DNA of 62,864 bases, taken from the NCBI RefSeq assembly GCF_004010195.1, contig NC_057757.1, positions 834,041 to 896,904 of the forward strand, read 5' to 3'. The notes under the pieces were generated by a model. That model did not search any database, had not been told where the DNA came from, and was given only the letters and a program-made list of their open reading frames with translations. Of the stretch, positions 13,225-47,459 are shown piece after piece. Each line of letters starts with the position of its first letter. Position 1 is the first letter of the stretch. Source of the stretch: Chiloscyllium plagiosum (lineage: Eukaryota). A program made the translations under genes and the position numbers.

Positions 13225-13800
13225 TGCAGTGCTGAGTGAATGCCGCACTGTTGGAGGGTCAGTACTGAGGGAGTGGGCACTGTCGGAGGGTCAGTGCTGA
13301 GGGAGTGGGCACTGTCAGGGGGTCAGCACTGAGGGAGTGCCTCTCTGTCGGAGGATCGGTGCTGAGGGAGTGCCGAACTATCAGAGGATCAGTGCTGAGG
13401 GAGCGGGCACTGTTGGAGGGTGAGTGTTGAGAGAGTGCTGCACTGTTGGAGGGTCAGCGCTGTGGGAGTGCCGCACTGTCAGAGGGTCAGCACTGAGGGA
13501 GTGGGCACTGTCGGAGGGTCAGTGCTGAAGGAGTGCCGCAATGTCGGAAGGTCAATACTGAGGGAGTGCCACACTGTTGGAGGGTCAGTGCTGAGGGAGC
13601 GCTGCACTGTCGGAGGGTCAGCGCTGAGGCAGCGGGCACTGTTGGAGGGTCAGTGCTGAAGGAGCGCCGCACTGTCGGAGGGTCAGCGCTGAGGGAGCAC
13701 CGCACTGTCAGAGGGTCAGCGCTGAGGGAGCGGGCACTGTTGGAGGGTCAGTGCTGAGGCAGCGGGCACTGTTGTAGGGTCAGTGCTGAGGGAGCCCCAC
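13225..13800. repeat. ~31-bp satellite array
   Basis: Tandem GCACTGTCGGAGGGTCAGTGCTGAGGGAG units. Confidence 0.92.
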
Positions 13801-14361: not shown

Positions 14362-14430
14362 TTATTCCCAATCAGTCAAGCGTCCGTTCAGTTCATCACC
14401 ATCCAAATTCCACTCTGCCTCTGGATCATC
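14362..14430 (-). CDS. Osteocrin-like precursor, candidate terminal coding exon (DDPEAEWNLDGDELNGRLTDWE*)
   Basis: Branch-point-like cactaac, pyrimidine tract and cag acceptor; phase 0 matches the donor at 17654; AATAAA overlaps the stop. Confidence 0.55.
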   Translation of the reverse strand, partial: DDPEAEWNLDGDELNGRLTDWE

Positions 14431-14509
14431 CTGATTAGGAGAGAGGTGCCACGTTAGTGAAGGTTCCCTAAACGAAAAGGCTTAGGTACAGAGCAACAGG
14501 AGTTGGCCT

Positions 14510-17295
14510 ATTGGTGGAGCCCAGAACAAGAGGGCATAGGTTTATGGTGAGAGGGGAAAGATTTAGAACGGCACTAAGGGGTTACTTTTTCACACAGAAG
14601 GTGATGCGTGTATGGAATGAGCTGCCAGAGGAAGTGGTGGAGGCTGGTACAATTACAGCATTTAAAAGGCATCTGGATGGGTATGTGAATTTGGAGGGAT
14701 ATGGGCCGGGTGCTGGCAAAGTTTAATTCAGATAAATACGAGATGCTGCATTTTGGGAAAGCAAATCTTAGCAGGATTTATACACTTAATGGTAAGGTCC
14801 TAGGGAGTGTTGCTGAACAAAGACCTTGCAGCGCAGGTTCATAAATTCCATGAAAGTAGAGTTGCAAGTAGATAGGATAGTGAAGATGGCATTTGGTATG
14901 CTTTCCTTTATTGGTCAGAGTATTGAGTACAGGAGTTGGAAGGTCATGTTNNNNNNNNNNNNNNNNNNNNNNNNNNNNNNNNNNNNNNNNNNNNNNNNNN
15001 NNNNNNNNNNNNNNNNNNNNNNNNNNGTCGGGGAGTCCAGAACTAGAGGGCATAGGTTTAGGGTGAGAGGGGAAAGATATAAAAGAGACCAAAGGGGCAA
15101 CGTTTTCATGCAGAGGGTGGTACGTGTATGGAATGAGCTGCCAGAGGAAGTGGTGGAGGCTGGTACAATTGCAACATTTAAGAGGCATTTGGATGGGTAT
15201 ATGAATAGGAAGGGTTTGGAGGGATATGGGCCGGGTGCTGGCAGGTGGGAGTAGATTGGGTTGGGATATCTGGTCGGCATGGACGGGTTGGACCGAAGGG
15301 TCTGGTTCCATGCTGTACATCTCTATGACTCTTTGACTCTCCTTTGCCATTCAATAGTATCATGGCTGAAGAGTTATCTAACACCACAGGCCTGCCTTAG
15401 GCCATATCCTTAATGCCATTCCTTAATAAAAATCTGTCTCAGACTGAAATTTACCTATTGAATTTGCATCCACTGCCGTTTGAGGAAGAGAATTTGAAAC
15501 CTTTGTGTGTGGAAGTGCTTCCTAACATCTCTCCTGAATGGTCTGACCTCTATTCTCAGACTATTCTCCCCATGTCTAGAATTCCCAACCAATGGAAATA
15601 GTTTATCTTTATCACCCCTGTATTTGCCTGCTAATCTAACTGATTTGAATGTGAACATAGGAGGTATAGCTAGTAAGTTTGCAGATGACACCAACATTGG
15701 AGGTGTAGTGCACAGCAAAGAAGATTATCTCAGAGTAAAACGCAATCTTGATCAGATGGGCCAATGGACTGAGGAGCGGCAGATGGAGTTTAATTTAGAT
15801 AAATGCAAGGTGCTGCATTTTGGAAAGGCAAATCAAAGCCTTATACACTTATACACTTAATGATAATAGTGAGAGTGTTGCTGAACAAAGAGACCTTGGA
15901 GTGCAGGTTCATAGTTCCTTGAAAGTGGAGTCACAGGTAGTTGGGATAGTGAAGAAGGCGTTTGGTATGCTTTCCTTTATTGGTCAGTGCATTGATTATA
16001 GGAGTTGGGAGGTCATGTTGCGGTTGTACAGGACATTAGTTAGGCCACTGTTGGAATATTGCATGCAATTCCGATCTCCCTCCTATCGGAAGGGTGTTGT
16101 GAAACTTGAAAGGGTTCAGAAAAGATTTACAAGGATGTTGCCAGGGTTGGAGGATTTGAGCTATAGGGAGAGGCAGAACAGGCTGGGGCTGTTTTCCCTG
16201 GAGCGTTGGAGGCTGAGGGGTGATCTTGTAGAGGTTTATAAAATCATGAGGGGCATGGATAGGGTAAATAGGCAAAGTCTTTTCCCTGGGGTGGGGAAGC
16301 CCAGAACTTGAGGGCATAGGTTTGGGGTGAGAGGGGAGGGATATAGAGGGGATTGAAGGGACAACGTTTTCACACAGAGGGTGGTGCGTGTATGGAATGA
16401 GCTGCCAGAGGAAGTGGTGGAGGCTGGTACAATTACAGCATTTAAAAGGCATCTGGATGGGTATGAGAATTTGGAGGATTTGGAGGGATATGGGCCGGGT
16501 GCTGGCAAAGTTTAATTCAGATAAATGCGAGGTGCTGCATTTTGGGAAAGCAAATCTTAGCAGGATTTATACACTTAATGGTAAGGTCCTAGGGAGTGTT
16601 GCTGAACAAAGAGACCTTGGAGGGAAGGTTCATAGCTCCTTGGAAGTGGAGTCGCAGATGGATAGGATAGTGAAGAAGGCGTTTGGTATGCTTTCCTTTA
16701 TTGGTCAGAGTATTGAGTACAGGAGTTGGGAGGTCATGTTGTGGCTGTACAGGACATTGGTTAGGCCACTGTTGGAATATTGTGTGCAATTCTGGTCTCC
16801 TTCCTATCAGAAAGATGTTGTGAAACTTGAAAGGGTTCAGAAAAGATTTACAAGGATGTTACCAGGGTTGGAGGATTTGAGCTACAGGGATAGGCTGAAC
16901 AGGCTGGGGCTGTTTTCCCTGGAGCGTCGGAGGCTGAGGGGTGACCTTATAGAGGTTTACAAAATGATGAGGGGCATGGCTAAGGTAAATGGCAAAGTCT
17001 TTTCCCTGGGACCGGGGAGTCCAGAACTAGAGGGCATAGGTTTAGGGTGAGAGGGGAAAGATATAAAAGAGACCTAAGGGGTAACACTTTCACACAATGG
17101 GTGGTACGTGTATGGAATGAGCTGCCAGATGAAGTGGTGGAGGCTGGTACAATTGCAACATTTAAGAAGCATTTGGATGTGTATATGAATAGGAAGGGTT
17201 TGGAGGGATGTGGGCCAGATGCTGCAAATGGGAGTAGATTAATTTCGGATATCTGGTCAGCATGGAAGAGTTGGACTGAAGGGTTTGTGTCCTTC
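14510..17295 (+). mobile_element. Cluster of 3'-end CR1 LINE fragments, partly head-to-tail
   Basis: Repeated KCEVLHFG...QRDLGV...LVRPLLEYC...RRLRGDLIEVYKIM...RVVRVWNELP ORF2 C-termini and 3' UTRs. Confidence 0.92.
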
Positions 17296-17653
17296 CTGAC
17301 TCTGGGTAGTTTCTTTCGGAGCGATTTTTTGATTCAATCTCCCCTTTGTATTGTTTGCTCTGGCCCTCCCACCCTCACTGACGCCCCCCCCCCCACGCCA
17401 CCTCACACCCACCCACCCCTGAGAGTGTTCGGGAGTAGGGGTATGTAGCCTTCGCATCAGCTGATGGGTGGGATCACTCTGTGAGCCCCCTCACCCATCG
17501 AGGTAGCAAAACCATCTCGAGAAATGTGGGACACTCGAAAAGACTGTGCAATCCCATCTCAGTATATTGGCACAGGACTGGTCCTCAGGAGCTGAGTAAC
17601 CGGGAAAGGGGGTACAAAGAGGGGTCGGGGAAAGGGGGGGGGCATTAACTCAC

Positions 17654-17720
17654 CAACCAGACCCTCCTGTGGAGTAAGGATGGGCCTCCAATGTGATCCA
17701 GCGGGGTCAATATTCTCCGC
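17654..17720 (-). CDS. Osteocrin-like precursor coding exon 3 (RRILTPLDHIGGPSLLHRRVWL)
   Basis: tttctacag acceptor, phase 2 entry, TTG|gtgagt donor (read-through would add VS* ending 17645); resembles OSTN RRFGIPMDRIG. Confidence 0.8.
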
Positions 17721-17989
17721 CTGTAGAAACACATAAAGGATGAACAAAATGTTCAGCGTCATCCAGCCCTCTGATTCCAATTGATATAATTGTTCCCCAG
17801 CCCCAGCACCCAATTCCAGACCTGCCCCTTGAATTTCCAACTGTGCATCCAAGCCAGCACCAAGACTACCTCCCTCTATCATCGCCCCTTCGGCCCCTCT
17901 GGATTCTACTGTCATCAGCCAGTATCCCACCCTCCGTAAACTGTCTCATCCCAGGGACTGGACAGACTGGAGTTGTTTCCCCTGGACCA

Positions 17990-18500
17990 AAGTGAGGACT
18001 GCAGATGCTGGAGATCAGAGTCGAGAGTGCGGTGCTGGAAAAGCACAGCAGGTCAGGCAGCATCCGAGGAGCAGGAGAGTCGACGTTTTGGGCAAAAGTC
18101 CTTCATCGGGAATGAGGCTGGGAGCCTCGGGAGTGGAGAGATAAATGGGAGGGGAGTGGGGCTGGGGAGAAGGTAGCTGTGAGTGCAATAGGTGGATGGG
18201 GGGTGGGGTTAAAGGTGATAGGTCAGAGAGGAGGATAGGTGGGAAGGGAGATTGACAGGTAGGACAGGTCATGAGGGCAGTGCCGAGTTGGAGGGCTGGA
18301 TCTGGGATAAGGTGGGAAGAGGGGAAATGAGGACCAGTGGTGAAATCCACATTGATGCCCTGGAGTTGGAGGGTCCCAAGGCAGAAGTTGAGGCATTCTT
18401 CCTCCAAGCGCTGGGTTGTGAGGGAGTGGCGGTGGAGGAGGCCCAGGACCTGCATGTCCTTGGTAGAGTGGGAAGGGAAGCTGAAGTGTTCGGCCACGGG
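17990..18500 (-). mobile_element. Penelope-like element 3' fragment (GIY-YIG endonuclease C-terminus and terminal repeat)
   Basis: VAEHFSFPSHS...LEEECLNFCLGTLQLQGINVDF resembles the GIY-YIG C-terminus of Penelope ORFs; degenerate hammerhead-like motif in the tail. Confidence 0.7.
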
Positions 18501-18629
18501 GCAGTGGGGATAGTTGGTTGCTCCCCTGGAGCAGAGGAGACTGAGAGGGACAGTATAGATTCACAAGGTGCATCGATAGGGCAGACAGATAGGAATTTTC
18601 CCCCCTTTTTGCTGGGATCAATGACCATC

Positions 18630-19440
18630 TTGAAATTAGAGTCCCAGGTAGACAGGGTGATGCAGAAGGCGTTTGGTATGCTTGACTTTATTGGTGATTG
18701 CATTGGGTACAGGGGCTGGGAGGTCATGTTGAGGCTGTACAGGACATTGGTTAGACCACTGTTGGAATATTGTGTTCAGTTCTGGTTTCTGTGCTACAGA
18801 AAAGATGTTGTGAAACCTGAAAGGGTTCAGAAAAGATTCACAAGGATATTGCCAGGGTTGGAGGATCTGAGCTACAGAGAGAGGCTGAACAGGCTGGGGC
18901 TGTTTTCCCTGGAGCGTAGGGGGCTGAGGGGTGACCTTATAGAAGTTTACAAAATTATGAGGGGCATGGATAGGGTAAATAGACAAGGTTGAAAATGTGT
19001 TGCTGGAAAAGCGCAGCAGGTCAGGCAGCATCCAGGGAACAGGAGAATCGACGTTTCGGGGCATAAGCCCTTCCTGAAGCGCTTTTCCAGCAACAAATTT
19101 TCAGCTCTGATCTCCAGCATCTGCAGACCTCACTTTCTCCCTAAGTAGACAAGGTCTCTTCTCTGGGGTGGGGGAGTCCAGAACTAGAGGGCATAGCTTT
19201 AGGGTGAGAGGGGAAAGATATGAAAGGGACCTAAGGGGCGAATTTTTCACACAGAGGGTGGTGTGTATGGAATGAGCTGCCAGAGGAAGTGGTGGAGGTT
19301 GGTCAAATGACAACATTTAAAAGGCATCAGGATGGGTATATGAATAGGAAGGGTTTGGAGGGAGATGGACCAAGTGCTGGTAAATGGGACTAGATTATTT
19401 TATAATATCCGGTCGGCATGGACGAGTTGGACCGAAGGGT
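18630..19440 (+). mobile_element. CR1 3' fragment interrupted by a short Penelope-derived insert (about 18990-19140)
   Basis: CR1 ORF2 C-terminal peptide on both sides; AGACAAGGT is repeated at the two flanks of the insert. Confidence 0.8.
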
Positions 19441-20016
19441 CTACCTCTGTGTGTATACCTCTATGACTCTATGAACAGGGGGCATAGATTGAAGATACGA
19501 AGCAGAGGGTTTAGCGGGGAGGTGAGGGGGTGCGGGGAATCTGGAATTCTGTAGGAGTGGGAGAGGCAGAAACACTCATCACACCACGGAAGGGTTTGGA
19601 TGTGTCCTTGTGATGCCCAGTGCTGTGAATGGGGACTGTAATAGTGACCAGTACAGGGCTCAGTGGGCCAAAGGGTGTCTTCTGCGCTGTTGACCTCTAT
19701 CACTTTTCTTTATCACTGCAAGGTATGGCAGTCCCGAATAAATCCAACAGTGTAACACCTTTCCCTGGAGACTGAGGAGCTCACTCTCACGGGGAGTGGC
19801 TGGATTGTGGTGGGAGTGGGGGTGGGGTGATGACATGGGCGATGCTCAAGTGGGACAGCACAGATGGGCCAAATGGCCTGTTTCTGTGCTGGAGATTCTC
19901 AGTGGGGGGTTGGGATGTTATACTGAGGAACCCCGCCCCCCCTCCCGCCATGGGCAGGTTCTCCTGGCAGTCTGACAGAGCAGACGAGAGGTATGGGGAA
20001 AGAGAGAGGGCCTCAC

Positions 20017-20219
20017 CGAGGAGCTGGGCGGTCACCGTGGATCAGCCGTTTCTCCGAGAAAATCCGATCCAGGGGCCTTCCGAAGTTGGGAAGCAGGGAT
20101 GCTCTGGCCCCTCGCTGTTCACCCACTGACTCTGAGAAACCGGCTGTGTCCAGGTAATCATCATCGTCAGCAAATCGCACACTGGACCTGGAGTCACCTA
20201 CATCCAAAGGAACTGGGGC
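20017..20219 (-). CDS. Osteocrin-like precursor coding exon 2 (APVPLDVG...RGARASLLPNFGRPLDRIFSEKRLIHGDRPAP)
   Basis: gcag acceptor and CG|gtgagg donor; 203 nt, phase 0 to 2; FGRPLDRI resembles OSTN FGSPLDRL and the natriuretic peptide core FG..xDRI. Confidence 0.85.
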
Positions 20220-20299
20220 CTGCTCGTAGAATGACACCATCATGAGCAGCAGAGAAAACAGCTCGAGAGCAAAACACATCTCTCTCCTTCACCTTCTCT

Positions 20300-21070
20300 A
20301 TCTCACTCTCCCTCTCCCCATCCCTCGCTCCATTGATCTCACTCTCTCTCCCCATCCCTCTCTCCATTTATCTCACCCCCTCTCCCCATCCCTCGCTCCA
20401 TTGATCTCACTCTCTCTCCCCATCCCTCTCTCCATTTATCTCACCCCCTCTCCCCATCCCTCGCTCCATTGATCTCACTCTCTCTCCCCATCCCTCTCTC
20501 CATTTATCTCACCCCCTCTCCCCATCCCTCGCTCCATTGATCTCACTCTCTCTCCCCATCCCTCTCTCCATTTATCTCACCCCCTCTCCCCATCCCTCGC
20601 TCCATTGATCTCACTCTCTCTCCCCATCCCTCTCTCCATTTATCTCACCCCCTCTCCCCATCCCTCGCTCCATTGATCTCACTCTCTCTCCCCATCCCTC
20701 TCTCCATTTATCTCACCCCCTCTCCCCATCCCTCGCTCCATTGATCTCACTCTCTCTCCCCATCCCTCTCTCCATTTATCTCACCCCCTCTCCCCATCCC
20801 TCGCTCCATTGATCTCACTCTCTCTCCCCATCCCTCTCTCCATTTATCTCACCCCCTCTCCCCATCCCTCGCTCCATTGATCTCACTCTCTCTCCCCATC
20901 CCTCTCTCCATTTATCTCACCCCCTCTCCCCATCCCTCGCTCCATTGATCTCACTCTCTCTCCCCATCCCTCTCTCCATTTATCTCACCCCCTCTCCCCA
21001 TCCCTCGCTCCATTGATCTCACTCTCTCTCCCCATCCCTCTCTCCATTTATCTCACCCCCTCTCCCCATC
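20300..21070. repeat. Pyrimidine-rich minisatellite, 68-bp unit (dimer of ~34 bp), in the intron between osteocrin-like coding exons 1 and 2
   Basis: About 11 near-perfect tandem copies. Confidence 0.95.
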
Positions 21071-21233
21071 TGCATCTCCCCGTGTGCCATCACCCCCATC
21101 ACTCCCTCTCCCCAGTCACGCCCTCTTCCCCCAGCACTCCTCTCCCCAGTCACTCCCTCTCTCCCCAGTCACTCTCTGCCCCTGGTCACTCCCCACCCGG
21201 CCTCCCCCTATCTGTGTCTCTCTCTGTACGTAC

Positions 21234-21326
21234 CTGTGCCTGGGCTGTGTTCAGTACGAACCCTAGGCTTGGCTGCAGGAGCAGGAGCAGGAGCAGATTC
21301 TGAGCGATGGCCTGACTCAGGAACAT
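21234..21326 (-). CDS. Osteocrin-like precursor coding exon 1, signal peptide (MFLSQAIAQNLLLLLLLQPSLGFVLNTAQAQ)
   Basis: gtacag|ATG acceptor and CAG|gtacgt donor; 93 nt; Leu7 hydrophobic core followed by a PSLG cleavage-like region. Confidence 0.85.
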
Positions 21327-22679
21327 CTGTACGGGAAAGATGTGTTTGTGACCCCTTAATATTCTAGAGAGTGTCTGACAGTATAACTCCCATCCAACTG
21401 TGGAGCCAATCTGGGCGACCCCCCCCCCAATGATTTAAATTTGAAAATAAGGAAGATCCCAAAATCTGTCACAGGAGAGAGCATCCAGGGCAGTAGCAGA
21501 ATGCAGAGGGAGAACTGTCTGTAGACCCAATCCCAGTAACATCCCACTGAGCCTTGTGCGTAAACCCAGGCCAAGTAAAACTAAGGGCTTGCCCACGATG
21601 CCTACTGTTGTCGAACAGCTGCCATTAACAACGGCAGCAGAATCTTACACCAGCCCAAGTGCACTGAGCACAGGAGTGGGGCCCATTGAGGGAGTGAAAC
21701 GTAAATGTCTGCAGCACACAATGAGACCCATCAGTCCATTATGTCTGGACTAGCCCTTTTATCAGAATTATTGAAGGAGTGAGGAATTCCAGCATTGAAG
21801 ACAGATCGAAGAGGTTGGGACCACTCTCCCTGGAGAGAGGAGGCTGAGAGGGAGATTCGATAGAGGTTCCCAAAATCATGGCGGGGTTGGGCAAAGCAGA
21901 GAGCGGGAGGGTGCATAGATTTAAAGAGACGGGCGGGGTTGATGTGAGAAAGATGCACTGCCTGGAAGTGCAATGGGAGGCAGGTTCAATTGAGACTTTC
22001 AAAAGGATGGATATACAGTGGGCAGGGAGGGGGGGGGGGGGAAATGCAGGAGGTTGATGCTAGGGAACAGAACCAGTGCAAGCACAGTGGGCCAAATGGC
22101 CTCCCTCTGTGCCAGAGCAGTTCCGTGATTCTGAGAGAGAGTTGCTCTTTCCCAACAAACTACATCTCCACTCTCCCCTCCTGGAGGTTCCTGCTCCCAC
22201 GTACTTTCAGGCACCCTGTGTTCTTGATCACAACTGCTCACTGTGTCAAAAAGAAACCAAACTCTCACCTCTCCCTTGGACTCTCTGATAAATTATTCTC
22301 TGGTCATCTCCAGCCCTCACTGACCGCCCTCAACCAAAACCCCTCGGAAGTTAGACAGCCTTGGTTCACTCTCATAGACTCCTAACAGCATGGTAAAAGG
22401 CCCTTTGGCCCATCGGGCTATCAATCCTAGTCCCATTTTCCATTTATCCTATCCATGCCCGTCACGATTTTATGGCCTGTAGCCTTGTATTCTCGGGCCT
22501 TACAGCTGCACATCTGAATGTTTCTTTAGATGTCTTGGGAGGGGTTCCCAACTCCAATACTTTTTTAAGACACTGAACTCCAAATACCCACCACCAGCTG
22601 GGAGAAAATGTTCTTCCTCAAATCTCCTTACCTTAAAACTGTGCCCCCTGGTTAGCTCGTTCAATTCTGTCTGCAGCTA

Positions 22680-23310
22680 TGGGTGGCTCAGTGGGTACCA
22701 CTGCTGCCTCAGCGCCAGGGAACTGGGTTCAATTCCAGCCTCAGGCGACTGTCTATGTGGAGTTTGCACATTCTCCCCGTGTCTGTGTGGGTTTCCTCCC
22801 ACAATCCAAAGATTACATTGCATTACCTACAGTATGGAAACACGCCCTTCAGCCCAACAAGTCCATACCGACCCTATGAAGAGCAACCTACCCAGATCTA
22901 TTCCTCTACATTTACCCCTGACTAACGTACCTAATACTACAGGCAATTTAGCATAGCCAATTCACCTAATCTGCATGTCTTTGGATTGTGGGAGGAAACC
23001 GGAGCACCCGGAGGAAACCCACACGGGGAGAATGTGCAAACTCCACATAGAGAGCCACCCGAGGTGGGAATTGAACCCGGCACTGTGAGGCAGCAGTACT
23101 AACCACTGAGCCACCATGCTGCCCAAAAGATGTGCAGGTTAGGGTGGATTGGCCATGGGAAATTGTCCCATAGTGTCCAGGGATGTGCAGGTTGGGGTGG
23201 CTTGGCCATGGGAAATGCAGGGTTATAGGGTAGGGGTGGGATGCTCCTCTTTGGCTGGGGTGGGGGGGGGGGCTCAGTGTAGACTGAACAGCATGTTTCC
23301 ATCCGGTAGG
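22680..23310. mobile_element. Nested/inverted cluster of V-SINE (HE1-like) copies
   Basis: SINE heads and V-domains on both strands. Confidence 0.8.
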
Positions 23311-23462
23311 GATTCTACGATCTGATAGGGATAGGGACCAGTAAACTCTGGCTGAAGAAAAACCGTTAAAAAAAAAACAAATTATGCGTTCGGAATGAAT
23401 CGAATTAATATAAGAATCAAACAATTCTTCCCAGGTTCCCGTGGATAGATTAACAGTCTCAC

Positions 23463-23605
23463 CTTTAGCAGCTCCGCGAACACTGGGGTTAGTTTGCAAA
23501 TGCTACTCTCCTCCGTTGCAGTTGAATTGCGAACCTTCTGCTGTTAAGTCCCTTTTTACTGAGGGGTTTATAAAGGTTGACCTGGGCGGGGTATTTATAA
23601 AAAAG
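23463..23605 (-). promoter_or_regulatory. Candidate TATA promoter and non-coding exon 1 of the osteocrin-like gene
   Basis: Minus-strand TATAAA at 23567-23572, GC box and A/T-rich element just upstream; an ATG-free ~80-nt stretch ends in AAG|gtgaga at 23463; splicing gives AAG-ATG (A at -3). Confidence 0.55.
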
Positions 23606-24164
23606 AAAATCCTTTTCTATGAAGTCACGCGAATGGGTTTGACCTGGGTTCAAGCTGGAGACGTTTTTTTCTTGCTTTTCATTTTAATTTTTGTTATTTT
23701 TCTTCGTTTAATCTGAGTGCGAAATCAGCAAAACCAAAATAATAAGACATTAATCATGTATCCCTCCCAAAAGTGCCAGACAAAAAGACGAGAACTCCTG
23801 TCTCTTTCCCCCCCCCACACCCTCTTTGGTTTCTGACCGGGCCTGACCCAGGTCAATGCGAAGGAGAGTTCTCTTTCACTGTTCATTTTACAGGGTTCAA
23901 TTGTTGATCAATTCTGATGTAGCCCACCTCCCTCTGTCCCATGAATACAAGGGGAGAGATTGCCTGAGACTTAGGTTTGGTTTAGATTTAAGCTTATTGT
24001 CACCTGTACTCAAGTACATTGAAAAATGGACAATTTTACTTGTTACACATCATATAACTTTTGGAGCAGGTGTATTTGATATTCTCGAGATACAGACTGG
24101 CTTTCAGGATTGCAAATCTGCCTAGCAACAGTCTCTGGAATTCTTCATTTGCCCTTTACCTGAG

Positions 24165-24895
24165 GAGTGGGAATGTTGCTGAACAAAGAGACCTTGGAGT
24201 GCAGGTTCATAGTTCCTTGAAAGTGGAGTTGCAGGTAGATAGGATAGTGAAGAAGGCGTTTGGTATGCTTTCCTTTATTGGTCAGAGTATTGAGTACAGG
24301 AGTTGGGAGGTCATGTTGTGGCTGTACAGGACATTGGTTTGGCCACTGTTGGAATATTGCATGCAATTCTGGTCTCCTTCCGAACAGAAAGATGTTGTGA
24401 AACTTGAAAGGGTTCAGAAAAGATTTACAAGGATGTTGCCAGGGTTGGAGGATTTGAGCTATAGGGAGAGGCTGAACAGACTGGGGCTGTTTTCCCTGGA
24501 GCTTCGGAGGCTGAGGGGTGACCTTATAGAGGCTTATAAAATCATGAGGGGCATGGATAGGATAAATATACAAAGACTTTTCCCTGGGCTGGGACAGTCC
24601 AGAACTAGAGGGCATAGGTTTAGGGTGAGAGGGGCAAGATATGAAAGAGACCTAAAGGGCAACTTTCACACGCAGAGGGTGGTACGTGTATGGAATGAGC
24701 TGCCAGAGGAAGTGGTGGAAGCTGGTACAATTGCAACATTTAAAAGGCATCTGGATGGAGATATGAGTAGGAAGGGTTTGGAGGGATATGGGTCGGGTGC
24801 TGGCAGGTGGGACTAGATTGGGTTGGGATATCTGATCGGCATGGACGGGTTAGACCGAAGGGTCTGTTTCCGTGCTGTACATCTCTATGACTCTA
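24165..24895 (+). mobile_element. CR1 LINE 3' fragment with intact ORF2 C-terminus and tail
   Basis: ORF 24061-24816 CR1 motifs; 3' UTR ends ...CTCTATGACTCTA. Confidence 0.92.
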
Positions 24896-26519: not shown

Positions 26520-28280
26520 ACAGGATCAGTACTGAGAGAGTGTTGCACTGTCAGAGGGTCAGTGCTGAGGCAGTGTGACACTGTCAGAGGGTTAGTGCTG
26601 AGGCAGTGTGACACTGTCAGAGGGTCAGTGCTGAGGCAGTGTGACACTGTCAGAGGGTCAGTGCTGAGGGAGTGGGCACTGTCAGAGGGTCAGTGCTGAG
26701 GCAGTGTGACACTGTCGCAGGGTCAGTGCTGAGGCAGTGTGACACTGTCGGAGGGTCAGTGCTGAGGCAGTGTGACACTGTCAGAGGGTCAGTGCTGAGG
26801 GAGTGTTGCACTGTCAGAGGGTCAGTGCTGAGGCAGTGTGATGCTGATGGAGGGTCAGTGCTGAGGGAGTGTGACACTGTCGGAGGATCAGTGCTGAGGG
26901 AGTGTGACACTGTCGGAGGGTCAGTACTGAGAGAGTGCTGCACTGTCAGAGGGTCAGTGCTGAGGCAGTGTGACACTGTCAGAGGGTCAGTGCTGAGGGA
27001 GTGGGCACTGTCAGAGGGTCAGTGCTGAGGGAGTGCTGCACTGTCAGAGGGTCAGTGCTGAGGGAGTGGGCACGGTCAGAAAGTCAGCGCTGAGGGAGCA
27101 CTGCACTGTCGGAGGGTCAGCACTGAGGGAGTGCTGCACTGTCGGAGGGTGAGCGCTGAAGGAGTGCTGCACTGTCGGAGGGTCAGCGCTGAGGGAGTGC
27201 TGCACTGTCGGAGGGTGAGTGCTGAGGGGGTGTGACACTGTCAGAGAGTCAGTGCTGAGGGAGCACCGCACTGTTGGAGGGTCAGTGCTTAGGGAGCGCC
27301 GCACTGTTGGAGTGTCAGTGCTAAGGGAGCGCCGCACTGTTGGAGTGTCAGTGCTAAGGGAGCGTCACATTGTCGAAGGTCAGTGCTGAGGTAGCACCGC
27401 ACTTTCAAAGGATCAGTGCTTAGGGAGTGCTGCACTATTGGAGAGTCAGTGCTGAGGGAGTGTTGCACTGTCGTAGGGTCAGCGCTGAGGGAGTGCCGCA
27501 CTGTTGGAGGGTCAGCGCTGGGAGAGCACGCACTATCGGAGGGTTAGTGCTGAGGGAGTGCTACACTGTCAGTGGGTTAGTGCTGAGGAAGTGGGCACTG
27601 TCGGTGGGTTAGTGCTGAGGAAGTGGGCACTGTCGGAGGGTCAGTGCTGAGGGAGCACCGCACTGTCGGAGAGTCAGTGCTGAGGGAGCGCCGCACAGTT
27701 GGAGGGTCAGTGCTAAGGGAGTGGGAAGTGTCAAAGGGTCAGTGCTGAGGCAGTGGGCACTGTAGGGGATCAGGGCTGAGGGACTGTACACTGTTGGAGA
27801 GTCAGTGGTCATGGAGTGCCGCACTGTCGGAGGGTCAGTGCTGAGGGAGTGGGCACTGTCGGAGAGTCAGTGCTGAGGGAGCGCCGCACTGTCTGAGGAT
27901 CAGTGCTGAGGGAGCGCCGCACTGTCTGAGGATCAGTGTTTAGATGGGCCGCACGGTTGGAGGATCAGTGCTGAGGGAGCGCCGCACTGTTGGAGGGTCA
28001 GCGCTGGGAGAGCGGGCTCTATCGGAGGGTTAATGTTGAGGGATCGTCGCACTGACGGAGGAGGCACTGTCGGAGGGTCAGTGCTGAGGGAGCGGCGCAC
28101 TGTCAGAGGGTCAGTGCTGAGGGAGCGGCGCACTGTCAGAGGGTCAGTGCTGAGGGAGCGGCGCACTGTCTGAGGGTCAGTGCTGAGGGAGTGCCGCACT
28201 GTCGGAGGGTCAGTGCTGAGGGAGCGGCGCACTGTTGGAGAGTCAGCGCTGAGGGACTGTCGCACTGTTGGAGGGTCAAG
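26520..28280. repeat. Large ~31-bp satellite array
   Basis: More than 50 tandem degenerate units. Confidence 0.95.
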
Positions 28281-28584
28281 TGACTGTGAAAGATTCCGTG
28301 GCTGAGAGAACAAAGATGAACTGGAGCGAATTCTCTCCCGGTGACCTGGGACTAATAGTAAACCCTGAACTAACAATCACATTTCTGTCTGTTGCAGCTT
28401 GCTGCATGTGCCAATCCCCACGTTACATCAGTCCCCACATTTGAAATAAGTGCATCAGTGGTCTTGGGACCTGTGGGTTCAAGGAAGCTGGTCAGGAAAT
28501 GCAAAACCTTTGCTGTGAAATACTCATGGACACCATGAGCAGCCACTTGGGTGAAGGTACAGAATCTGATTTGGCCATTTGACA

Positions 28585-33550: not shown

Positions 33551-33750
33551 TCAGGGAACTTTTTTCCGGCTTGAGTTTGACTTCTTCCCATCTCGGCATC
33601 TCTCGCAGAAAAAGACGTCAGGGACTTTAGACTTGCGGATTTTAGCACAGGACAGGTGGATCCAGGTGTTGCACTGGTTACACTCAATCATCGGCCTGCC
33701 CGCAAACGGCTTCTGGCAGTAACAGGTCACCAGGCTCCAAGAGTCATCAT
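33551..33750 (-). CDS. PHF23: PHD finger protein 23, exon 5 (PHD finger, stop)
   Basis: [51 protein letters not shown] is a C4HC3 PHD finger typical of PHF23/PHF13; gttgtag acceptor. Confidence 0.93.
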
Positions 33751-35614
33751 CTACAACACCGGCAGAGCCAGAGGGGGGAAAGGAGCGAGGGGGGCAGCGC
33801 AGGAACGAGGTGGGGGGGAGCAAGAGCAGTGAGAGTGAGGGGGAAGGGAGCGAGGGAGGCGACAGANNNNNNNNNNNNNNNNNNNNNNNNNNNNNNNNNN
33901 NNNNNNNNNNNNNNNNNNNNNNNNNNNNNNNNNNNNNNNNNNNNNNNNNNNNNNNNNNNNNNNNNNNNNNNNNNNNNNNNNNNNNNNNNNNNNNNNNNNN
34001 NNNNNNNNNNNNNNNNNNNNNNNNNNNNNNNNNNNNNNNNNNNNNNNNNNNNNNNNNNNNNNNNNNNNNNNNNNNNNNNNNNNNNNNNNNNNNNNNNNNN
34101 NNNNNNNNNNNNNNNNNNNNNNNNNNNNNNNNNNNNNNNNNNNNNNNNNNNNNNNNNNNNNNNNNNNNNNNNNNNNNNNNNNNNNNNNNNNNNNNNNNNN
34201 NNNNNNNNNNNNNNNNNNNNNNNNNNNNNNNNNNNNNNNNNNNNNNNNNNNNNNNNNNNNNNNNNNNNNNNNNNNNNNNNNNNNNNNNNNNNNNNNNNNN
34301 NNNNNNNNNNNNNNNNNNNNNNNNNNNNNNNNNNNNNNNNNNNNNNNNNNNNNNNNNNNNNNNNNNNNNNNNNNNNNNNNNNNNNNNNNNNNNNNNNNNN
34401 NNNNNNNNNNNNNNNNNNNNNNNNNNNNNNNNNNNNNNNNNNNNNNNNNNNNNNNNNNNNNNNNNNNNNNNNNNNNNNNNNNNNNNNNNNNAGAGGGAAG
34501 GAGGGAATGAATTTGAGTGACAGAGAGAGGAGGTAACAGTTAAATGAAGAACAATTCCTTTTCTACCCAAGTACCACCCCATCCCTCCCAACTCAAACAC
34601 AAACTAGAGGATGTCGCTGTTCACCTCCACCTGAAATTTCCTATGACAGTAAACATTGCCTGCGTCCCAGCAGGGTGCAGCTGTGGCCTATAACACAAGA
34701 TACACAGCATGAAAACAGGCCATTCTGCCCCAGCCTAGTCCACCTGAGCCTCCTATTACCTTTCCTCATCTAAACACACTGCCGGAACCCTCGATACCTT
34801 TCGATCTCAATCGCTTGTCTATTATCAATGCTGTTGTGGATGAGTCATGCAGAGGCTCTGGGGACAGAGGTGAGGTGAACCAGATGGATTCACACTACAA
34901 TCAATTACAGTATTATGGTCACTGTTAATGCAGATAGCTCCATATTCCAGAACATAAGCAGTAAATTCAAGCTGGAACCAGCTTCCCTGTGCCTCTGGGT
35001 TACCAGTGCAGCAGCATTAGCACACTGCCACTGCCTCCCCACTCTGACGAAAGAACAAAGCTGCATTTATTTAATGTCTCACACGGTAGGCATGTCCCAG
35101 AACACTCTCCAGCCAAAAGACCCATTTTTCAGACGAGGCCATCCATTTTGCAAACCAGCCCAGTTCCACTAGCAACAAGGAGAAGTGATGTGTTTTTAGC
35201 CGTGGAATAAATACCGTGCAGGAAAGCTTGCAAGTACAGCCGAGTCCATAGACATCCGGCCTCAAAGTTTCATCTCATCCAAATTCAATACCTCAGCACA
35301 GCATTCAATATCAGCCTACATTAACACCCATCCCTGTGTGGCACCTTCCAGTTCGGTACTGGGTCAAATGGACCCAACAAATTCAAACTGACAGTTGTGT
35401 TAAAGAGCTGGACACGTTATGAGCCTACATTAGAGTGGTGCTGGAAAAGCACAGCTTCATTCCCGAAGAAGGGCTTTTGCCCAAAACGTTGATCTTCCTG
35501 CTCCTCGGATGCTGCCTCACCTGCTGCGCTTTTCCAGCACCAGTCTAATGTAGACTCTGATTTCCAGCATCTGCAGTCCTCACTTTTGCCTGCACACATT
35601 CTGACCAAACTAAC

Positions 35615-36191
35615 CTGATTCCACCATGATGTCTTCGTCCATGATGCGTGTCTCGCCTTCACTGGAGCTGCTGCCCCCGTCTCGGCTGTTTCCCACACTG
35701 AGCGAGTCTTTGATTTCCATTTGATAACTCTCACTATAAACACCCTCCGGATCTGGCCTCAGAGGCTCGGGGAGAAAGTTCCCTTTCACCAGCTCTTCGT
35801 CCGAGTCGGTCTCACTCAGCGAGGCCTTGACTTTCTTCTCCGCTCTCTCTTTCTTCAGCTTGCGTTTCTTCCTCCTCTTGATCCGGGAGAAGGTGGACTT
35901 CTCGCCATCCAGGGGCCTCAGCTGCTCCGCCTCAGAGGGCCAGTGCTTGCTCCTCTTCTCCTTCTTTTCCTCCGGGGCTGGGTACAAGGAATCCTTGAGC
36001 TTCAGCCTGTCCAGGAGCACCCCGTCCGGTCTCAGGGGATGGAACCCATTCCTCCTGGAGCTGCTCGCCTTCTTCACAAAATTCTGGATGGTGTCAAAGT
36101 CAACAGACTGGGTGGAGTCCCAGCTGTCACTGTCCAAAACACTCTCTGTCGGCACTGGGGAATTTGAACTTGATGGCGTCCAGTCACACTC
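35615..36191 (-). CDS. PHF23: PHF23 exon 4 (ECDW...DSDSWDS...IQNFVKKA...RIKRRKKRKLKK...SSSEGETRIMDEDIMVES)
   Basis: tctcacag acceptor and G|gttagt donor; 577 nt; PHF23-type motifs (FVKKA, LKDSL, MDEDIMVES). Confidence 0.92.
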
Positions 36192-36384
36192 CTGTGAGAA
36201 TTTGAGGGAGAGAGGAGTCACATTGAGTTTTTTCCCCCTCAGTATTGGCCCTGCACTTCAATGTTAATTAACCTCCGTTCCCTTAGAACCCAAAAGTCCC
36301 AACCTTCCCAGCCTCAAAGACTGAGCTGTATAGAACTCCATGTTTTCCACCCACACTCAGTCAGTGTTGCCTTCCTTTTTAGAA

Positions 36385-37889: not shown

Positions 37890-40400
37890 AGGATGTTGTG
37901 AAACTTGAAAGGGTTCAGAAAAGATTTACAAGGGTGTTGCCATGGTTGGAGGGTTTGAGCTATAGGGAAGAGGCTGAATAGGCTGGGGCTGTTTTCCCTG
38001 AAACGTTGGAGGCTGGGGGGTGACCTGATAGAGAGGTTTATAAAACCATGACAGGCATGGCATGTTAAAAACCACCCAACACCAGGTTATAGTCCAACAG
38101 GTTTATTTGGAGTCACTAGCTTTTGAAGTCTGCTTCTTCATCAGGTGGTTGTGGAGCAGAATCATAGGACACACAATTTACAGCAACAGGATTGCAGTAT
38201 TATGGAATGTAATCTTAACCACATTTAACTTGAGTCTTTCACCTTTTAGAGTAATCATATTCGTTTTGGTTCCTTCATATGTAAACCCCAGAACTGTTTT
38301 AAAATTACATTCTCAAGATAGCTTTTAACAATAGGTGCCAGCTCAGCTCAGATAATGCATTGAAGGTGTGAGGTTAAAGTCTGTCTGTGTCCTAATGTTA
38401 GATCAGACTGATTCTATTTCTAAAGTGGGATTTACAGCATTTTACATGGATTTATGCAGTGTTTGAGCAAAATATAATGTAATTCTGCAAGTACAAATTC
38501 ACCCCACAAACGCGTGCACGCGCAGGGGAGATAAGTGAGTATGTGTGGGGTGACAGCTTGTGGGGTGTACATATGTGCACATGAGAGAGAGAGCTTGTGT
38601 ATGAGAGAGGGTCTGCGTGGGTGTATGGATCTGTAGGGGTTTGTGTGTGTGTGCGCGCGCCTGTGAGAGAGTTTGAGAGTGTATATTGCAGTGGGATCAC
38701 CCAAGAATTAAGACCTTGGGTTCATGTTGCACTACAGGTGATCCCACTGCACTATACACACTCACACCTACAAACCCACATAGACCCTCTCTCATATGCT
38801 CACACATACACCCTCTCACAGACTTCTACCCCATCACACTTTCATACATATTATGTGTTCGTAATTTTTATTAATGACTTGGATGAGCATATTTTGTGGA
38901 TTGAAGGATGGATCAGCAAGTTTGCAGACAACACAAAGGTTGGAAGTGTCGTTGACAGTACATAGGGCTGTTGTAGGCTGCAGCGGGACATTGACAGGAT
39001 GCAGAGATGGGCCGAGAGGTGGCAGATGGAGTTCAACCTGAATAAATGAGAGGTGATGCATTTTGGAAGGTCGAATTTGAAAGCTGAGTACAGGATTAAG
39101 GAAAAGATTCTTGGTAGTGTGGAGGAACAGAGGGATCTTGGTGTGCAGGTACACAGATCCTTTAAAATGGCCACCCAAGTGAACAGGGTTGTTAAGAAAG
39201 AATGGTGTTCTGGCTTTCATTAACAGGGGGATTGAGTTTAAGAGTCGTGAGATCCTGTTGCAGCTCTATAAAACTTTGGTTAGACCGCACTTGGAATACT
39301 GCGTCCAGTTCTGGTCGCCCTATGATAGGGAAGATGTGGATGCTTTGGAGAGGGTTCAGAGGAGGTTTACCAGGATGCTGCCTGGACTGGAGGGCTTATC
39401 TTATGAAGAGAGGTTGACTGAGCTCGGACTTTTTTCATTGGAGAAAAGGAGGAGGAGAGGGGACCTAATTGAGGTATACAAGATAATGAGAGGCATAGAT
39501 AGAGTCGATAGCCAGAGACTATTTCCCAGAAATGACTAACACGAGGGGTTATAGTTTTAAGCTGGTTGTACACACACTCCCTTGGTCTCCCCTGCGCATG
39601 CACGCATTTGTGGGGTGAATTTGTACTTGCAGAATTACATTATATTTTGCTCAAACACTGCATAAATCCATGTAAAATGCTGTAAATCCCACTTTAGAAA
39701 TAGAATCAGTCTGATCTAACGTTAGGACACAGACAGACTTTAACCTCACACCTTCAATGCATTATCTGAGCTGAGCTGGCACCTATTGTTAAAAGCTATC
39801 TTGAGAATGTAATTTTAAAACAGTTCTGGGATTTACATATGAAGGAACCAAAACGAATATGATTATTCTAAAAGGTGAAAGATTCAAGCTAAATGTGGTT
39901 AAGATTACATTCCATAATACTGCAATCCTGTTGCTGTAAATTTTGTCATCTGATTCTGCTCCACAACCGCCTGAAGGAGCAGTGCTCTGAAAGCTCATGC
40001 TTCCAAATAAACCTGTTGAACTATAATCTGGTGTTGTGTGATTTTTAACTTGGTCCACCCCTGTCCACACTGACACCTCCAAATCCGTAAATAGACAAGA
40101 TCTTTTCACCAGGGTCGGGGAGTCCAGAACTAGAGGGCATAGGTTTAGGGTGAGAGGGAAAAGATATAAAAGGGACCTAAGGGGCAACGTTTTCACACAG
40201 AGGGTGGTACATGTATGGAATGAGCTGCCACAAGAAATGCTGGTACAATTACAACATTTAAAAGGCATCTGGATGGGTATATGAATAGAAAGGGATATGA
40301 GCCAAGTGCTGGCAAATGGGAATAGATTAGTTTGGGATATCTGGTCGGCCTGGACTAATTGGACCAAAGGGTCAGTTTCCATGCTGTACGTCTCTATGAC
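37890..40400 (+). mobile_element. CR1 3' fragment split by a ~2-kb composite insert with long Penelope-derived inverted repeats enclosing a second CR1 RT fragment
   Basis: About 38060-38520 is the reverse complement of about 39600-40050; inner CR1 at about 38860-39565; outer CR1 resumes at about 40086. Confidence 0.8.
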
Positions 40401-43801: not shown

Positions 43802-44389
43802 CTGAAAGCCAAAGAAAACCAAGTTAGAGAACTGCAGATTCAGGGCTTTCCTGACAATGGCACTCACTCCCATAAAGCAATCCATTTAATCCAACATCCT
43901 TGTACTACTCTCGACCTCAGATGGCAGACTTCTTCTGCTGCACCACCACCGCGCCCCCTCCAACGTCCCCAGAAAACAGTCCATGCTCTTATCACCCACT
44001 CACACTTCAACCATCGATTCTAGGGAACGTTTATCTCTCATCGGCCCAACTGTCACAGCAACCAGTGTCCCGCTCTCAACCCTCTCCCACTCTGTATTTC
44101 TCACTCTCCAACATGTTCCACTACGAAACACTGGCTTAATGGGTAGCGGATATGCCTGAGTCATAGTTATTCAGCACAGAAACATGGCCATGCCATTTGT
44201 CAGCACTTGGCCCATATCCCTCTAAACCCTTCCTGTTCATATTCCCATCCAGATGCCTTCTCTATTTACCCTAACCATGTCCCTAATGATTTTATAAAGC
44301 ATTATAAGGTCACCAGTCAGCATCTGATGATCCAGGGAAAATAGCTTAGGGTGGGCACAGAGTGAGTGCACACTGGGGGGGGGAGAACA

Positions 44390-45140
44390 GAGGGAGCGCT
44401 GCACTGTGGGGTGCGGGGGCAGCGAGGGAGCGCTGCACTGTGGGGTGCGGGGGCAGCGAGGGAGCGCTGCACTGTGGGGTGCGGGGGCAGCGCCGCACTG
44501 CGGGCTGCGGGGGCAGCGCCGCACTGCGGGCTGCGGGGGCAGCGAGGGAGCGCCGCACTGCGGGCTGCGGGGGCAGCGAGGGAGCGCCGCACTGCGGGCT
44601 GCGGGGGCAGCGAGGGAGCACCGCACTGCGGGGTGCGGGGGCAGCGAGGGAGCGCCGCACTGCGGGCTGCGGGGGCAGCGAGGGAGCACCGCACTGCGGG
44701 GTGCGGGGGCAGCGAGGGAGCGCCGCACTGCGGGCTGCGGGGGCAGCGAGGGAGCACCGCACTGCGGGGTGCGGGGGCAGCGAGGGAGCGCCGCACTGCG
44801 GGGTGCAGGGGCAGCGAGGGAGCGCCGCACTGCGGGCTGCGGGGGCAGCGAGGGAGCGCCGCACTGCGGGCTGCGGGGGCAGCGAGGGAGCACCGCACTG
44901 CGGGGTGCGGGGGCAGCGAGGGAGCGCCGCACTGCGGGCTGCGGGGGCAGCGAGGGAGCACCGCACTGCGGGGTGCGGGGGCAGCGAGGGAGCGCCGCAC
45001 TGCGGGCTGCGGGGGCAGCGAGGGAGCACCGCACTGCGGGGTGCGGGGGCAGCGAGGGAGCGCCGCACTGCGGGCTGCGGGGGCAGCGAGGGAGCACCGC
45101 ACTGCGGGGTGCGGGGGCAGCGAGGGAGCGCCGCACTGCG
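44390..45140. repeat. Very GC/CpG-rich 31-bp tandem repeat (GCAGCGAGGGAGCGCCGCACTGCGGGCTGCGGGG family)
   Basis: More than 20 tandem units; related to the 31-bp satellite elsewhere in the window. Confidence 0.92.
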
Positions 45141-46940
45141 GGACATATCGCAGAGAGACCAGGCCGACATACCGCCCAGAGACTGGGTTTACTTACTGCA
45201 GAGAGACCAGGCAGACATATTGCAGAGAGACCGGGCTGACTTACTGCCCAGCGACTGGGCAGACATACCGCCCAGAGACCGGAATAACATACCGCAGAGA
45301 GACCAGGCTGACATACCGCCCAGAGACCGGCTCACATACCACAGAATGACCAGGCTGATATACTGCTGAGAGACCGGGCTGATGTACCGCTGACAGACGG
45401 GGCTGACATATTGCTGAGAGACCGGGGTGTTATATTGCTGAGAGACTGGACTGACAGACCGCTGACAGACTGGGCTGACTTACCGCAGAGACCGGGCTGA
45501 CATATTGCAGAGAGACTGAGCTGACATACCGCCCAGCGACCGGGCTGACAGACCGCCCAGAGAGAGGAATAACATACCGCAGAGAGCGGGCAGACATACC
45601 GCCCAGAGACCGAACTGATATACCGCAGAGAGACTGGGCTGACATACCGCACAGAGACCGTACTGACATACCACCCAGAGACTGAAATGACATACCGCAC
45701 AGAGACCGGGCTGACATACTGCACAGAGACCGGATTGCCATACCGCACAGAGACTGGGCTCACACGCCGCAGAGAGACCGGACTGCCATACCGTACAGAG
45801 ATCGTGCTTACAAACTGCCCTGAGACCAGGCTGACATACTACAGAGAGACAAAGCTGACATACTGCAGAGAGACCGGGCCGACATACAGCCGAGAGACCG
45901 GGCTGACATACTGCAGAGAGATCGGGCTGATATACCACAGTGAGACCATCCTGACGTTCCGCCTAGAGACTGGGCTGACATTCCGCAGAGAGACTGGGCT
46001 GACATACCGGACAGAGAGCGGGCTGACATATCGCACAGAGACTGGGCTGTCATACCGCACAGAGACCGGGTTGACATATTGCAGAGAGACCGGCCTGAAA
46101 TACCGCTTAGAGGCTGGGTTGACATACAGCAGAGAGACCGGACAGATATACCACAGGGAGACCGGGCTGGCATACTGCAGGCAGACCTGGCTGACATACC
46201 GCCCAGAGACCGGGCTGACATACCGCAGACAAACCGGGCTGATATACCGCCGTGAGACCAGGCTGTCATATCGCAGAGAGACCGGGCTGACATACCTCAG
46301 AGAGACCGGGCCGACATACAACCCAGAGACCAGGCTGACATACCACAGAGAGACAAAGCTGACATACCGCAGAGAGACCGGGTTGACATACTGCACAGAC
46401 CAGGCTGACATACTGCAGAGAGACCGGGCCGACATACAGCAGAGAGACCAGGCAGATATACCACAGGGAGCCGGGCTGGCATACCGCAGGCAGACCAGGC
46501 TAACATACCGCCCAGAGACCAGGCCGACATACCGCAGACAAACCGGGCTGATATATCGTCGTGAGACCAAGCTGGCATATCGCAGAGAGACCTGGCTGAC
46601 ATACCTCAGAGAGACCGGGCCGACATACAATCCAGAGACCGGGTTGACATACCGCACAGAGACCGGCTGACATACTGCAGAGAGACTGGGCCCACATACT
46701 GTAAAGAGATCGGGCTGACATACCGCCCAAAGACCATGGTGACATACCGCAGAGAGACCGGGCTGACATACTGCCGAGAGACCGCGCAGACATACCGCTG
46801 ATAGACTGGGCTGACATACCGCAGAGAGACCGGGCAGACTTACCGCACAGAGAGCAGGCCGACATACAGCCCAGAGACTGGGCTGATATACTGCAGAGTG
46901 ACCGGGCTGACATACCGCAGAGAGACCAGGCTGACATATT
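45140..46940. repeat. 24-bp minisatellite (CTGACATACCGCAGAGAGACCGGG)
   Basis: Dozens of degenerate tandem units; translates as TYRRETGL repeats. Confidence 0.92.
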
Positions 46941-47459
46941 ATAATTTGTCTGCTCACTGAATATGGGGATTTTTTTCAATTTTGTGCCCCTGTTTTAATG
47001 TCGTCCGCTCATGATGAAGAGATGTTGCTTTTCACTGAGTCAGAGTCAGCGATACTCAGCAGAGAAAATTGGCAAAACATAACATGAAATAAACATTCTG
47101 AAAATGATAGCTAGGCAGAGTTTAAAAGTGACACAATATTAGTGTCCTTGGGTATTACAGAAAACAACTCTTCACTCATAGTCATCAACAGTCAAACATG
47201 ATTTTTTTTTAGGCTGTTATTGCTAGATTGGAGATTGTCTGAGTTAAACATTGATGCAAATTCTGTTTTTCAGCAAAATTGCATTTAATCTGTCAGAAGC
47301 TAAGAAATTTTACTGTGTTCTCATTAACTTCTGTCACAATCTGCGATATGCAATTAGAGAGATTGATATTCATTGCATAACCTCAAGCTGAACTTTTTCT
47401 ATCTTTTCTACAAGTTTGTTCTCCCAATCGCGCTCTCCTATGCCATTAGGCTTTGATTC

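Follow-up and report, generated by a model that had tools for sequence, protein, structure and literature searches.

Whether a shark can possess a second osteocrin-like hormone gene in addition to its ordinary OSTN is the question raised by the locus of Chiloscyllium plagiosum analysed here. The locus lies in a stretch of 62,864 nucleotides (C48:834,041-896,904; referred to below as the window), taken from a contig (C48) of 9.99 Mb in an assembly of 3.56 Gb. A reading of the bare letters (the original prediction) had assembled four minus-strand exons into a hidden gene for an osteocrin/musclin-like peptide, and had judged this gene more likely to be a separate paralogue than the orthologue of OSTN. 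We consider it rather probable, judging from sequence and position, that the window gene encodes a secreted prohormone of the osteocrin/natriuretic-peptide (NP) type, that it is a paralogue and not the orthologue of OSTN, and that it is an ohnologue which arose in the genome duplications of early vertebrates and was kept in sharks.

The four coding exons (93+203+67+69 nt), all on the minus strand, were joined to 432 nt that form a single open frame of 143 amino acids followed by TAA. All acceptors are rich in pyrimidines and end in AG, the donors are gtacgt, gtgagg and gtgagt, and the phases are compatible; coordinates, AG/GT borders, phases and translation were all identical to those originally predicted. 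The 93-nt exon (21234-21326, amino acids 1-31) carries a signal-peptide-like N-terminus, and its ATG starts at the first base after the acceptor. The 203-nt exon (20017-20219, amino acids 32-98 plus 2 nt) encodes an acidic pro-region, the elements FAD..DY and EQRGAR, a first NP-like motif and KR. The 67-nt exon (17654-17720) completes amino acid 99 and encodes amino acids 100-121, which read RR-ILTPLDHIGGPSLLH-RR-VWL. The last coding exon (14362-14430, 66 nt plus TAA, amino acids 122-143) adds an acidic, Trp-containing C-terminal extension.

The predicted precursor begins with a hydrophobic stretch that includes seven consecutive Leu residues (9-residue Kyte-Doolittle maximum of 2.39), with Ser/Gly at positions -3/-1 of a possible cleavage site after Gly22, as placed by a heuristic. 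The remainder of the protein is acidic and Arg-rich. It contains no Cys, as the original prediction had stated. Two NP-like motifs, separated by polybasic sites and without a Cys ring, were found in the C-terminal half. The first, FGRPLDRI (amino acids 77-84, 20061-20084), was also picked up by a pattern match at C48:854102-854124, corresponding to positions 20062-20084 of the window. It lies within the predicted peptide ASLLPNFGRPLDRIFSE, which the translation of 20046-20111 shows to be flanked by RGAR and KR. The second, ILTPLDHIG (amino acids 102-110, 17687-17713), is degenerate. The basic sites, which are conserved, delimit the predicted peptides ASLLPNFGRPLDRIFSE (RGAR/KR) and ILTPLDHIGGPSLLH (RRR/RR) and an acidic tail of 25 residues.

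Relatives of the protein were sought with phmmer, using the 67-residue translation of the 203-nt exon as the query against 1.84 billion representative proteins (E <= 0.001). Four proteins were matched, of which three are from sharks (E-values of 1e-33 to 1e-11). XP_078063474.1 from Mustelus asterias (RefSeq 'uncharacterized protein LOC144489480') comprises 141 amino acids and follows the window protein in the succession of its elements over the full length, Met to stop. GCB80586.1 from Scyliorhinus torazame is a partial model of 99 amino acids that terminates where the 203-nt exon terminates, and GCC45196.1 from C. punctatum is a partial model of 88 amino acids that is 94% identical over the 203-nt exon and mis-started within the intron. 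These three are orthologues in which the elements follow in the same order; none has a functional name, and only the Mustelus model is neither truncated nor mis-started. The Mustelus and Scyliorhinus proteins each contain one Cys, located in the signal peptide. The fourth match, a tandem-repeat protein of 313 amino acids (E-value of 3.9e-4), was dismissed as low-complexity.

The gene was already present in RefSeq as a model of one shark orthologue, without a functional name or a family, and is thus not entirely the hidden gene that had been claimed. On the reading adopted here it would be a new osteocrin-like paralogue, of which this one uncharacterized RefSeq shark model was known. In the literature searched, which left most subscription journals outside its scope, no report of an osteocrin paralogue or of a cartilaginous-fish osteocrin was found.

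When the Mustelus protein was compared with the whole window by tblastn, the best four matches were the four coding exons, collinear and on the minus strand, with E-values of 3.6e-5, 3e-18, 1e-3 and 1.1 for coding exons 1-4 in order. The 67-nt exon matched at 13/20 residues. Over the whole protein 69/138 residues (50%) are identical to Mustelus, distributed as 37/54 from EQRGAR to HRR, 26/62 upstream and 6/22 downstream, so that the last coding exon is weakly conserved. In all four aligned sequences F-A-D..D-Y (F46, A47, D48, D51 and Y52), EQRGAR, LxPNF and PLDRIFSEKR are invariant; the invariant FAD..DY of the pro-region may be a sign of another functional element. The sharks compared belong to two different orders. 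The intact frame, the splice sites and the conserved basic sites across these sharks argue for purifying selection, and by this comparison the locus is a real shark gene that has been selectively maintained. A word-indexed protein search with the translation of the 203-nt exon, directed at longer proteins, scored none of 95 candidates; with the Mustelus protein as the query, only the protein itself and the Scyliorhinus model matched among ten candidates. A search of sequencing runs for the words of the 203-nt exon listed no RNA run; some of these words occur in several small runs from other organisms, which are of uncertain kind and do not count as evidence.

The family was assigned with Pfam. 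The Mustelus protein matched a single family, Musclin (PF11037; E-value of 0.0046, 17.3 bits), with residues 69-117 aligned to profile positions 80-131 of 132, so that both motifs are covered. GCC45196.1 and GCB80586.1 gave no Pfam match at E <= 10. As a control, the open frames of all four C-type natriuretic peptide (CNP) genes of this genome were scanned; they matched only ANP (PF00212) at 43-52 bits and never Musclin. The Mustelus protein gave no ANP match at E <= 10, lacks the 17-residue disulfide ring and has a mature part without Cys. Sequence searches of the PDB with the Mustelus protein gave no match, and a profile gave only a myosin light chain and COQ9 at chance level. The osteocrin likeness that had been proposed is borne out, though weakly by formal standards: Musclin is the sole family and its alignment spans both motifs, but the score falls below the cut-off. 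The first 79 positions of the Musclin profile have no counterpart in the protein, in agreement with the earlier statement that it diverges from OSTN outside the motifs. The osteocrin resemblance is thus specific yet formally weak and confined to the C-terminal motif region.

The original prediction had named the surroundings of GMNC, UTS2B and CCDC50 as the place in which a canonical OSTN would be expected, and an osteocrin-type exon was indeed found in the UTS2B/CCDC50 neighbourhood, on the chromosome-scale contig C13. The order on this contig is a P53-family gene at 58.82 Mb, the N-terminal exons of CCDC50 at 59.263-59.268 Mb (minus strand), URP and the osteocrin-type exon; the Geminin family, searched for as a marker of GMNC, was not found on C13. 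The region from 59.27 to 59.45 Mb (180 kb, of which 4,052 bases are N) was scanned in six frames. The last exon of URP/UTS2B, with a frame ending in AACFWKYCV and a stop at C13:59,350,007 (plus strand), stands head to head with CCDC50 at a distance of ~82 kb. The osteocrin-type last exon (C13:59,369,299-59,369,379, minus strand) lies ~19 kb past the 3' end of UTS2B in convergent orientation. It is preceded by a strong acceptor, ttctttttgatccctgcag/G, and encodes KGVDGRKRKTNFPMDRIGRMYLPKIRY followed by TGA. These 27 residues include RKRKTNFPMDRIGR, and the motif reads RKRK-TNFPMDRIGR, with the stop 8 residues past IGR.

Musclin was the only Pfam family matched by this exon, with an E-value of 0.027 for the 27 residues (profile positions 106-131 of 132) and 0.017 for the 62-residue frame (positions 105-131). 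A rough chance estimate (0.027 divided by 24,736 families and multiplied by 7,645, the number of open-frame pieces over the 180 kb) amounted to ~0.008, with strand and position not counted in. The arrangement of CCDC50, UTS2B and OSTN, of which the first two stand head to head and the last two tail to tail, mirrors that of human 3q28. The exon is assigned on these grounds to the shark's ordinary OSTN. As OSTN is thus located separately on C13, the window gene is a second, paralogous osteocrin-like gene, which supports the proposal that it is not the OSTN orthologue; the notion that the candidate is the only osteocrin-like gene of the genome is corrected by the same exon.

Genome-wide searches were less informative. 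Pfam Musclin gave no match at E <= 10 over the whole genome; since the candidate itself also went undetected, this search is insensitive. The query FGIPMDRIG with up to two mismatches gave five matches versus three in the control, none of them credible, and the pattern FGxP[LMIF]D[RS][LMIF] gave 25 matches versus 77 in the control, of which only the one at the candidate was precursor-like. These Phe-Gly patterns missed the C13 exon because Phe-Gly is replaced there by Thr-Asn. A hidden Markov model of the shark family gave nothing at E < 1 over the 180 kb of C13.

Two further sequences were noted during these searches. At C9:60,474,731-60,474,928 (plus strand) the last exon of OSTN from C13 is duplicated in degenerate form together with its 3' flank, with a mean column identity of 82% in the DNA alignment. 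The similarity begins at the first base of the exon, the decayed motif reads HFPIDLTGH and no stop is left (TGA to TCA). This is probably a dead segmental copy; by eye, the flank common to the C9 and C13 copies resembled an interspersed repeat. At C35:11,666,070-11,666,095 (minus strand) a frame ending in RCYNFGIPMERVGSSSLLKCVHCN and a stop has an osteocrin-like core between two Cys residues 19 residues apart. It is probably a chance match, as the pattern occurs at the chance level given above.

The surroundings of the window gene differ from those of OSTN. Exons with a Dishevelled (DVL) domain are located at C48:781-786 kb, the candidate at ~848-858 kb and PHF23 at ~868-870 kb, all on the minus strand, so that the candidate sits between DVL2 and PHF23 in an orientation common to all three. 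The reported adjacency to PHF23 was confirmed: among 11 relatives of the large exon 35610-36257 (minus strand), ten bear the name PHD finger protein 23; the other is an unnamed metaclust entry that also has an ATG8 domain. PHF23 extends over 33551-36257 on the minus strand, with the PHD-finger (last) exon at 33551-33850 (Pfam PHD and PHD_2) and more exons upstream of the large one. At human 17p13.1 DVL2 and PHF23 are direct neighbours. The ATG8 family, used as a marker of GABARAP, is absent from C48 and present on C43 beside a P53-family gene.

Three contig sets were found that each contain one DVL and one P53-family gene. On C13, DVL (63.5 Mb) and the P53-family gene (58.8 Mb) are accompanied by CCDC50, URP, OSTN and a single CNP gene (46.4 Mb). 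The C34 set consists of DVL (24.1 Mb), a P53-family gene (29.3 Mb) and a tandem pair of CNP genes (23.2 Mb). In the third set DVL, the candidate and PHF23 are on C48, and the ATG8 and P53-family genes lie 36 kb apart on C43. Given an osteocrin-like gene in the third of these paralogous regions, the window gene is most simply explained as an ohnologue of OSTN; a jump of a single gene into exactly that region is less likely. The N-terminal family of CCDC50 was matched once more at C34:25,528,354-25,528,485 (plus strand; E-value of 3.3e-7), where a CCDC50 duplicate may have been retained; that region of C34 also carries DVL, P53-family and two CNP genes.

Several observations weigh against the assignment to an OSTN paralogue of early origin. 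The 17.3 bits of the Mustelus protein are below the 21-bit gathering cut-off of Musclin, and the four exons of the window gene, when scanned singly, gave no Pfam match at E <= 10. In a protein language-model atlas the whole protein and residues 62-120 had only sub-threshold neighbours, which were generic neuropeptide precursors, and no osteocrin cluster. The second motif is without Phe-Gly and without Arg (its Arg position is occupied by His in the window and by Gln in Mustelus, ISTPLDQIS), which makes it questionable as a ligand; no more than one of the two motifs looks receptor-competent. On C13 the exon for motif 1 of OSTN was not found by pattern in the 80 kb upstream, within which there are two runs of N, and among 150 open frames scanned with Pfam in the first 10.6 kb upstream the other 149 had no Musclin match. 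The C13 OSTN was thus located by its last exon alone, and the gene may not be intact. Relatives outside sharks were found neither among the 1.84 billion representatives nor among the ten candidates of the word-indexed search, and because of this the age of the duplication is derived from position alone. Moreover, the matching of C13, C34 and C48/C43 to human 3q27-28, 1p36 and 17p13.1, which are classic paralogous regions, is provisional.

The least improbable alternative is that the gene belongs to the CNP lineage in the DVL2 paralogous region, has lost its cysteines independently and resembles osteocrin by convergence. Four CNP-type genes were located (C34:23,228,329-421, minus strand; C34:23,209,121-201, minus strand; C13:46,430,508-600, plus strand; C85118:2967-3053, minus strand), the C34 pair being in tandem and 19 kb apart. 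Their rings read CFG(V/R)K(L/M)DRIGAMS.LGC and are followed immediately by a stop. No natriuretic peptides of another type were found in the genome; in older publications elasmobranchs are credited with a single CNP. The core F-G-x-x-L-D-R-I, a predicted secreted precursor and a DVL-linked paralogous region are common to the window gene and the CNP precursors, and motif 1 is identical to the ring core of the C13 CNP gene (FGRKLDRI) at seven of eight positions. As the two CNP genes on C34 lie within 1 Mb of DVL, genuine NP genes of this genome can also be neighbours of DVL. The window family nevertheless differs from CNP in having neither the disulfide ring nor an ANP match and in carrying two motifs instead of one, and in Pfam the Mustelus protein is matched to Musclin and not ANP, the four CNP frames to ANP and not Musclin. 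Pro at the fourth motif position, tandem motifs with polybasic sites and the distribution of the motifs over two exons fit osteocrin, whereas the prosegment and peptide of CNP share a single open frame of 97-122 amino acids, so that the coding exons are arranged otherwise. A CNP origin is therefore regarded as unlikely.

It is also conceivable, but quite improbable, that the gene encodes a secreted prohormone whose active product is not a ligand of the clearance receptor NPR-C, the NP-like motif being vestigial and the true receptor unrelated. The product could then be the acidic FAD..DY element, a possible sulfotyrosine site of which F46, A47, D48, D51 and Y52 are invariant in four of four sequences, or the Trp-rich C-terminal piece; the degenerate motif 2 and the generic, sub-threshold neighbours in the atlas would agree with this. 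It is the NP-like block, however, that is most conserved (PLDRIFSEKR invariant, 37/54 identical), and it is bracketed by conserved basic sites. A relocation of the shark's OSTN orthologue to a place beside PHF23 was suggested by the first genome-wide pattern and Musclin searches, in which no other credible osteocrin-type motif appeared, but it has largely been refuted by the separate last exon in the UTS2B-CCDC50 slot of C13 and is very improbable. The same low probability is given to an unexpressed or decaying gene or an artefact of gene prediction: the last exon is indeed poorly conserved (6/22) and the models from the other species are computer-predicted, but the frame, splice sites, cleavage sites and invariant motif have been kept across sharks, which is unexpected for neutral sequence.

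The window gene may be compared with OSTN as follows. In the sources on OSTN features (PMC10253422; bioRxiv 10.1101/697094), osteocrin/musclin is a small secreted precursor with tandem NP-like motifs at the C-terminus that have Pro at the fourth position, are flanked by polybasic sites and lack a Cys ring; the window gene resembles it in each of these points, with a predicted secreted precursor in the same range of ~130-145 amino acids. It differs in its motif 2 and sub-cut-off Musclin score, as noted above, and in an extra last exon which leads to the acidic 25-residue tail after RR, where the C13 OSTN stops 8 residues past IGR. Its location at DVL2-PHF23 is not the orthologous position, which for OSTN is UTS2B-CCDC50.

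A mode of action can be proposed by analogy. In published work (bioRxiv 10.1101/697094; PMC10253422; PMC9219612), OSTN is described as containing two NP-like regions with polybasic sites between them, as lacking a Cys ring, as binding NPR3 with NP-like affinity and not the guanylyl-cyclase receptors, and as thereby shielding CNP from clearance. The secretion, cleavage, receptor and physiology that we infer for the window peptide follow this scheme. The signal peptide would be cleaved off near Gly22, and proprotein convertases would then act at the basic sites RGAR, KR, R(R/K)R and RR, all of which are conserved. The expected products are a linear Cys-free peptide of ~17 amino acids with FGRPLDRI, the degenerate second peptide ILTPLDHIGGPSLLH and the acidic C-terminal piece. 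The first peptide, like osteocrin, would bind NPR-C (NPR3) and, having no disulfide ring, would not bind the guanylyl-cyclase receptors; unlike CNP, it is expected to bind the clearance receptor only. By competing with CNP for clearance it would raise local CNP/NPR-B/cGMP signalling. Provided that the gene is expressed, the chances that the first peptide acts as such an NPR-C decoy ligand raising CNP signalling are put at roughly even. The more extensive proposal, that an ancient OSTN ohnologue in the DVL2-PHF23-TP53 region was lost in mammals (perhaps in all bony vertebrates) but kept in sharks, where it would provide a second endogenous NPR-C-selective ligand that sets CNP tone against a background of exclusively CNP-type natriuretic peptides, is advanced only tentatively and is somewhat doubtful.

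CNP-type peptides drive salt secretion by the rectal gland in sharks, and for this reason a decoy of the clearance receptor could matter physiologically; if the proposal is true, salt secretion, cardiovascular control and cartilage growth would be affected. A second ancient osteocrin-like gene would likewise add a component to the natriuretic-peptide system, and would show concretely how cartilaginous and bony vertebrates have differed in the duplicated hormone genes that they kept. The sequence FGRPLDRIFSE would offer a natural linear variant with which the ligand requirements of NPR-C could be probed.

The remaining features of the window concern the flanks and introns of the gene. A putative core promoter (23567-23599, minus strand) was recognized by motifs only, namely a CCGCCC box at 23589 and two TATAAA boxes whose first bases are at 23599 and 23572. 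It is followed by a predicted non-coding exon 1 (5' untranslated region; 23464-23570, minus strand), in which no ATG was seen on reading its sequence; the donor is AAAG/gtgaga at 23464/23463 and the 5' end was guessed from the TATA boxes. A 68-bp tandem repeat of 11.3 copies (20299-21070) occupies the greater part of the intron that separates coding exons 1 and 2, outside the product. The nearest AATAAA/ATTAAA candidate poly(A) signals are 1271 and 1421 nt past the stop codon.

Apparent satellite-like repeats that are open in many frames (for example SLSTDPPTV and PQCGAPSLPP) were observed at 13,227-13,795, 26,645-28,376 and 44,237-46,994. Tandem Repeats Finder confirmed only the first of these, as 17 copies of a 33-bp unit; this repeat occupies the stretch from 570 to 1135 nt past the stop codon of the candidate and may fall in its 3' untranslated region. 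Tail fragments of a LINE-type (long interspersed nuclear element) reverse transcriptase, which include RLNRLGLFSLERRRLRGDLIEVYKIMRGMDRV, were found at 15,498-17,050, 18,222-18,992, 24,058-24,816, 39,183-39,539 and 50,451-51,119, two of them within introns of the candidate gene. At 105-2206 and 49,100-49,741 both strands have long open frames, several of them overlapping, in which Pfam found nothing; these stretches may be GC-rich or CpG-island-like, and 49,100-49,741 may represent a promoter or first exon, either that of PHF23 or that of the gene after it.

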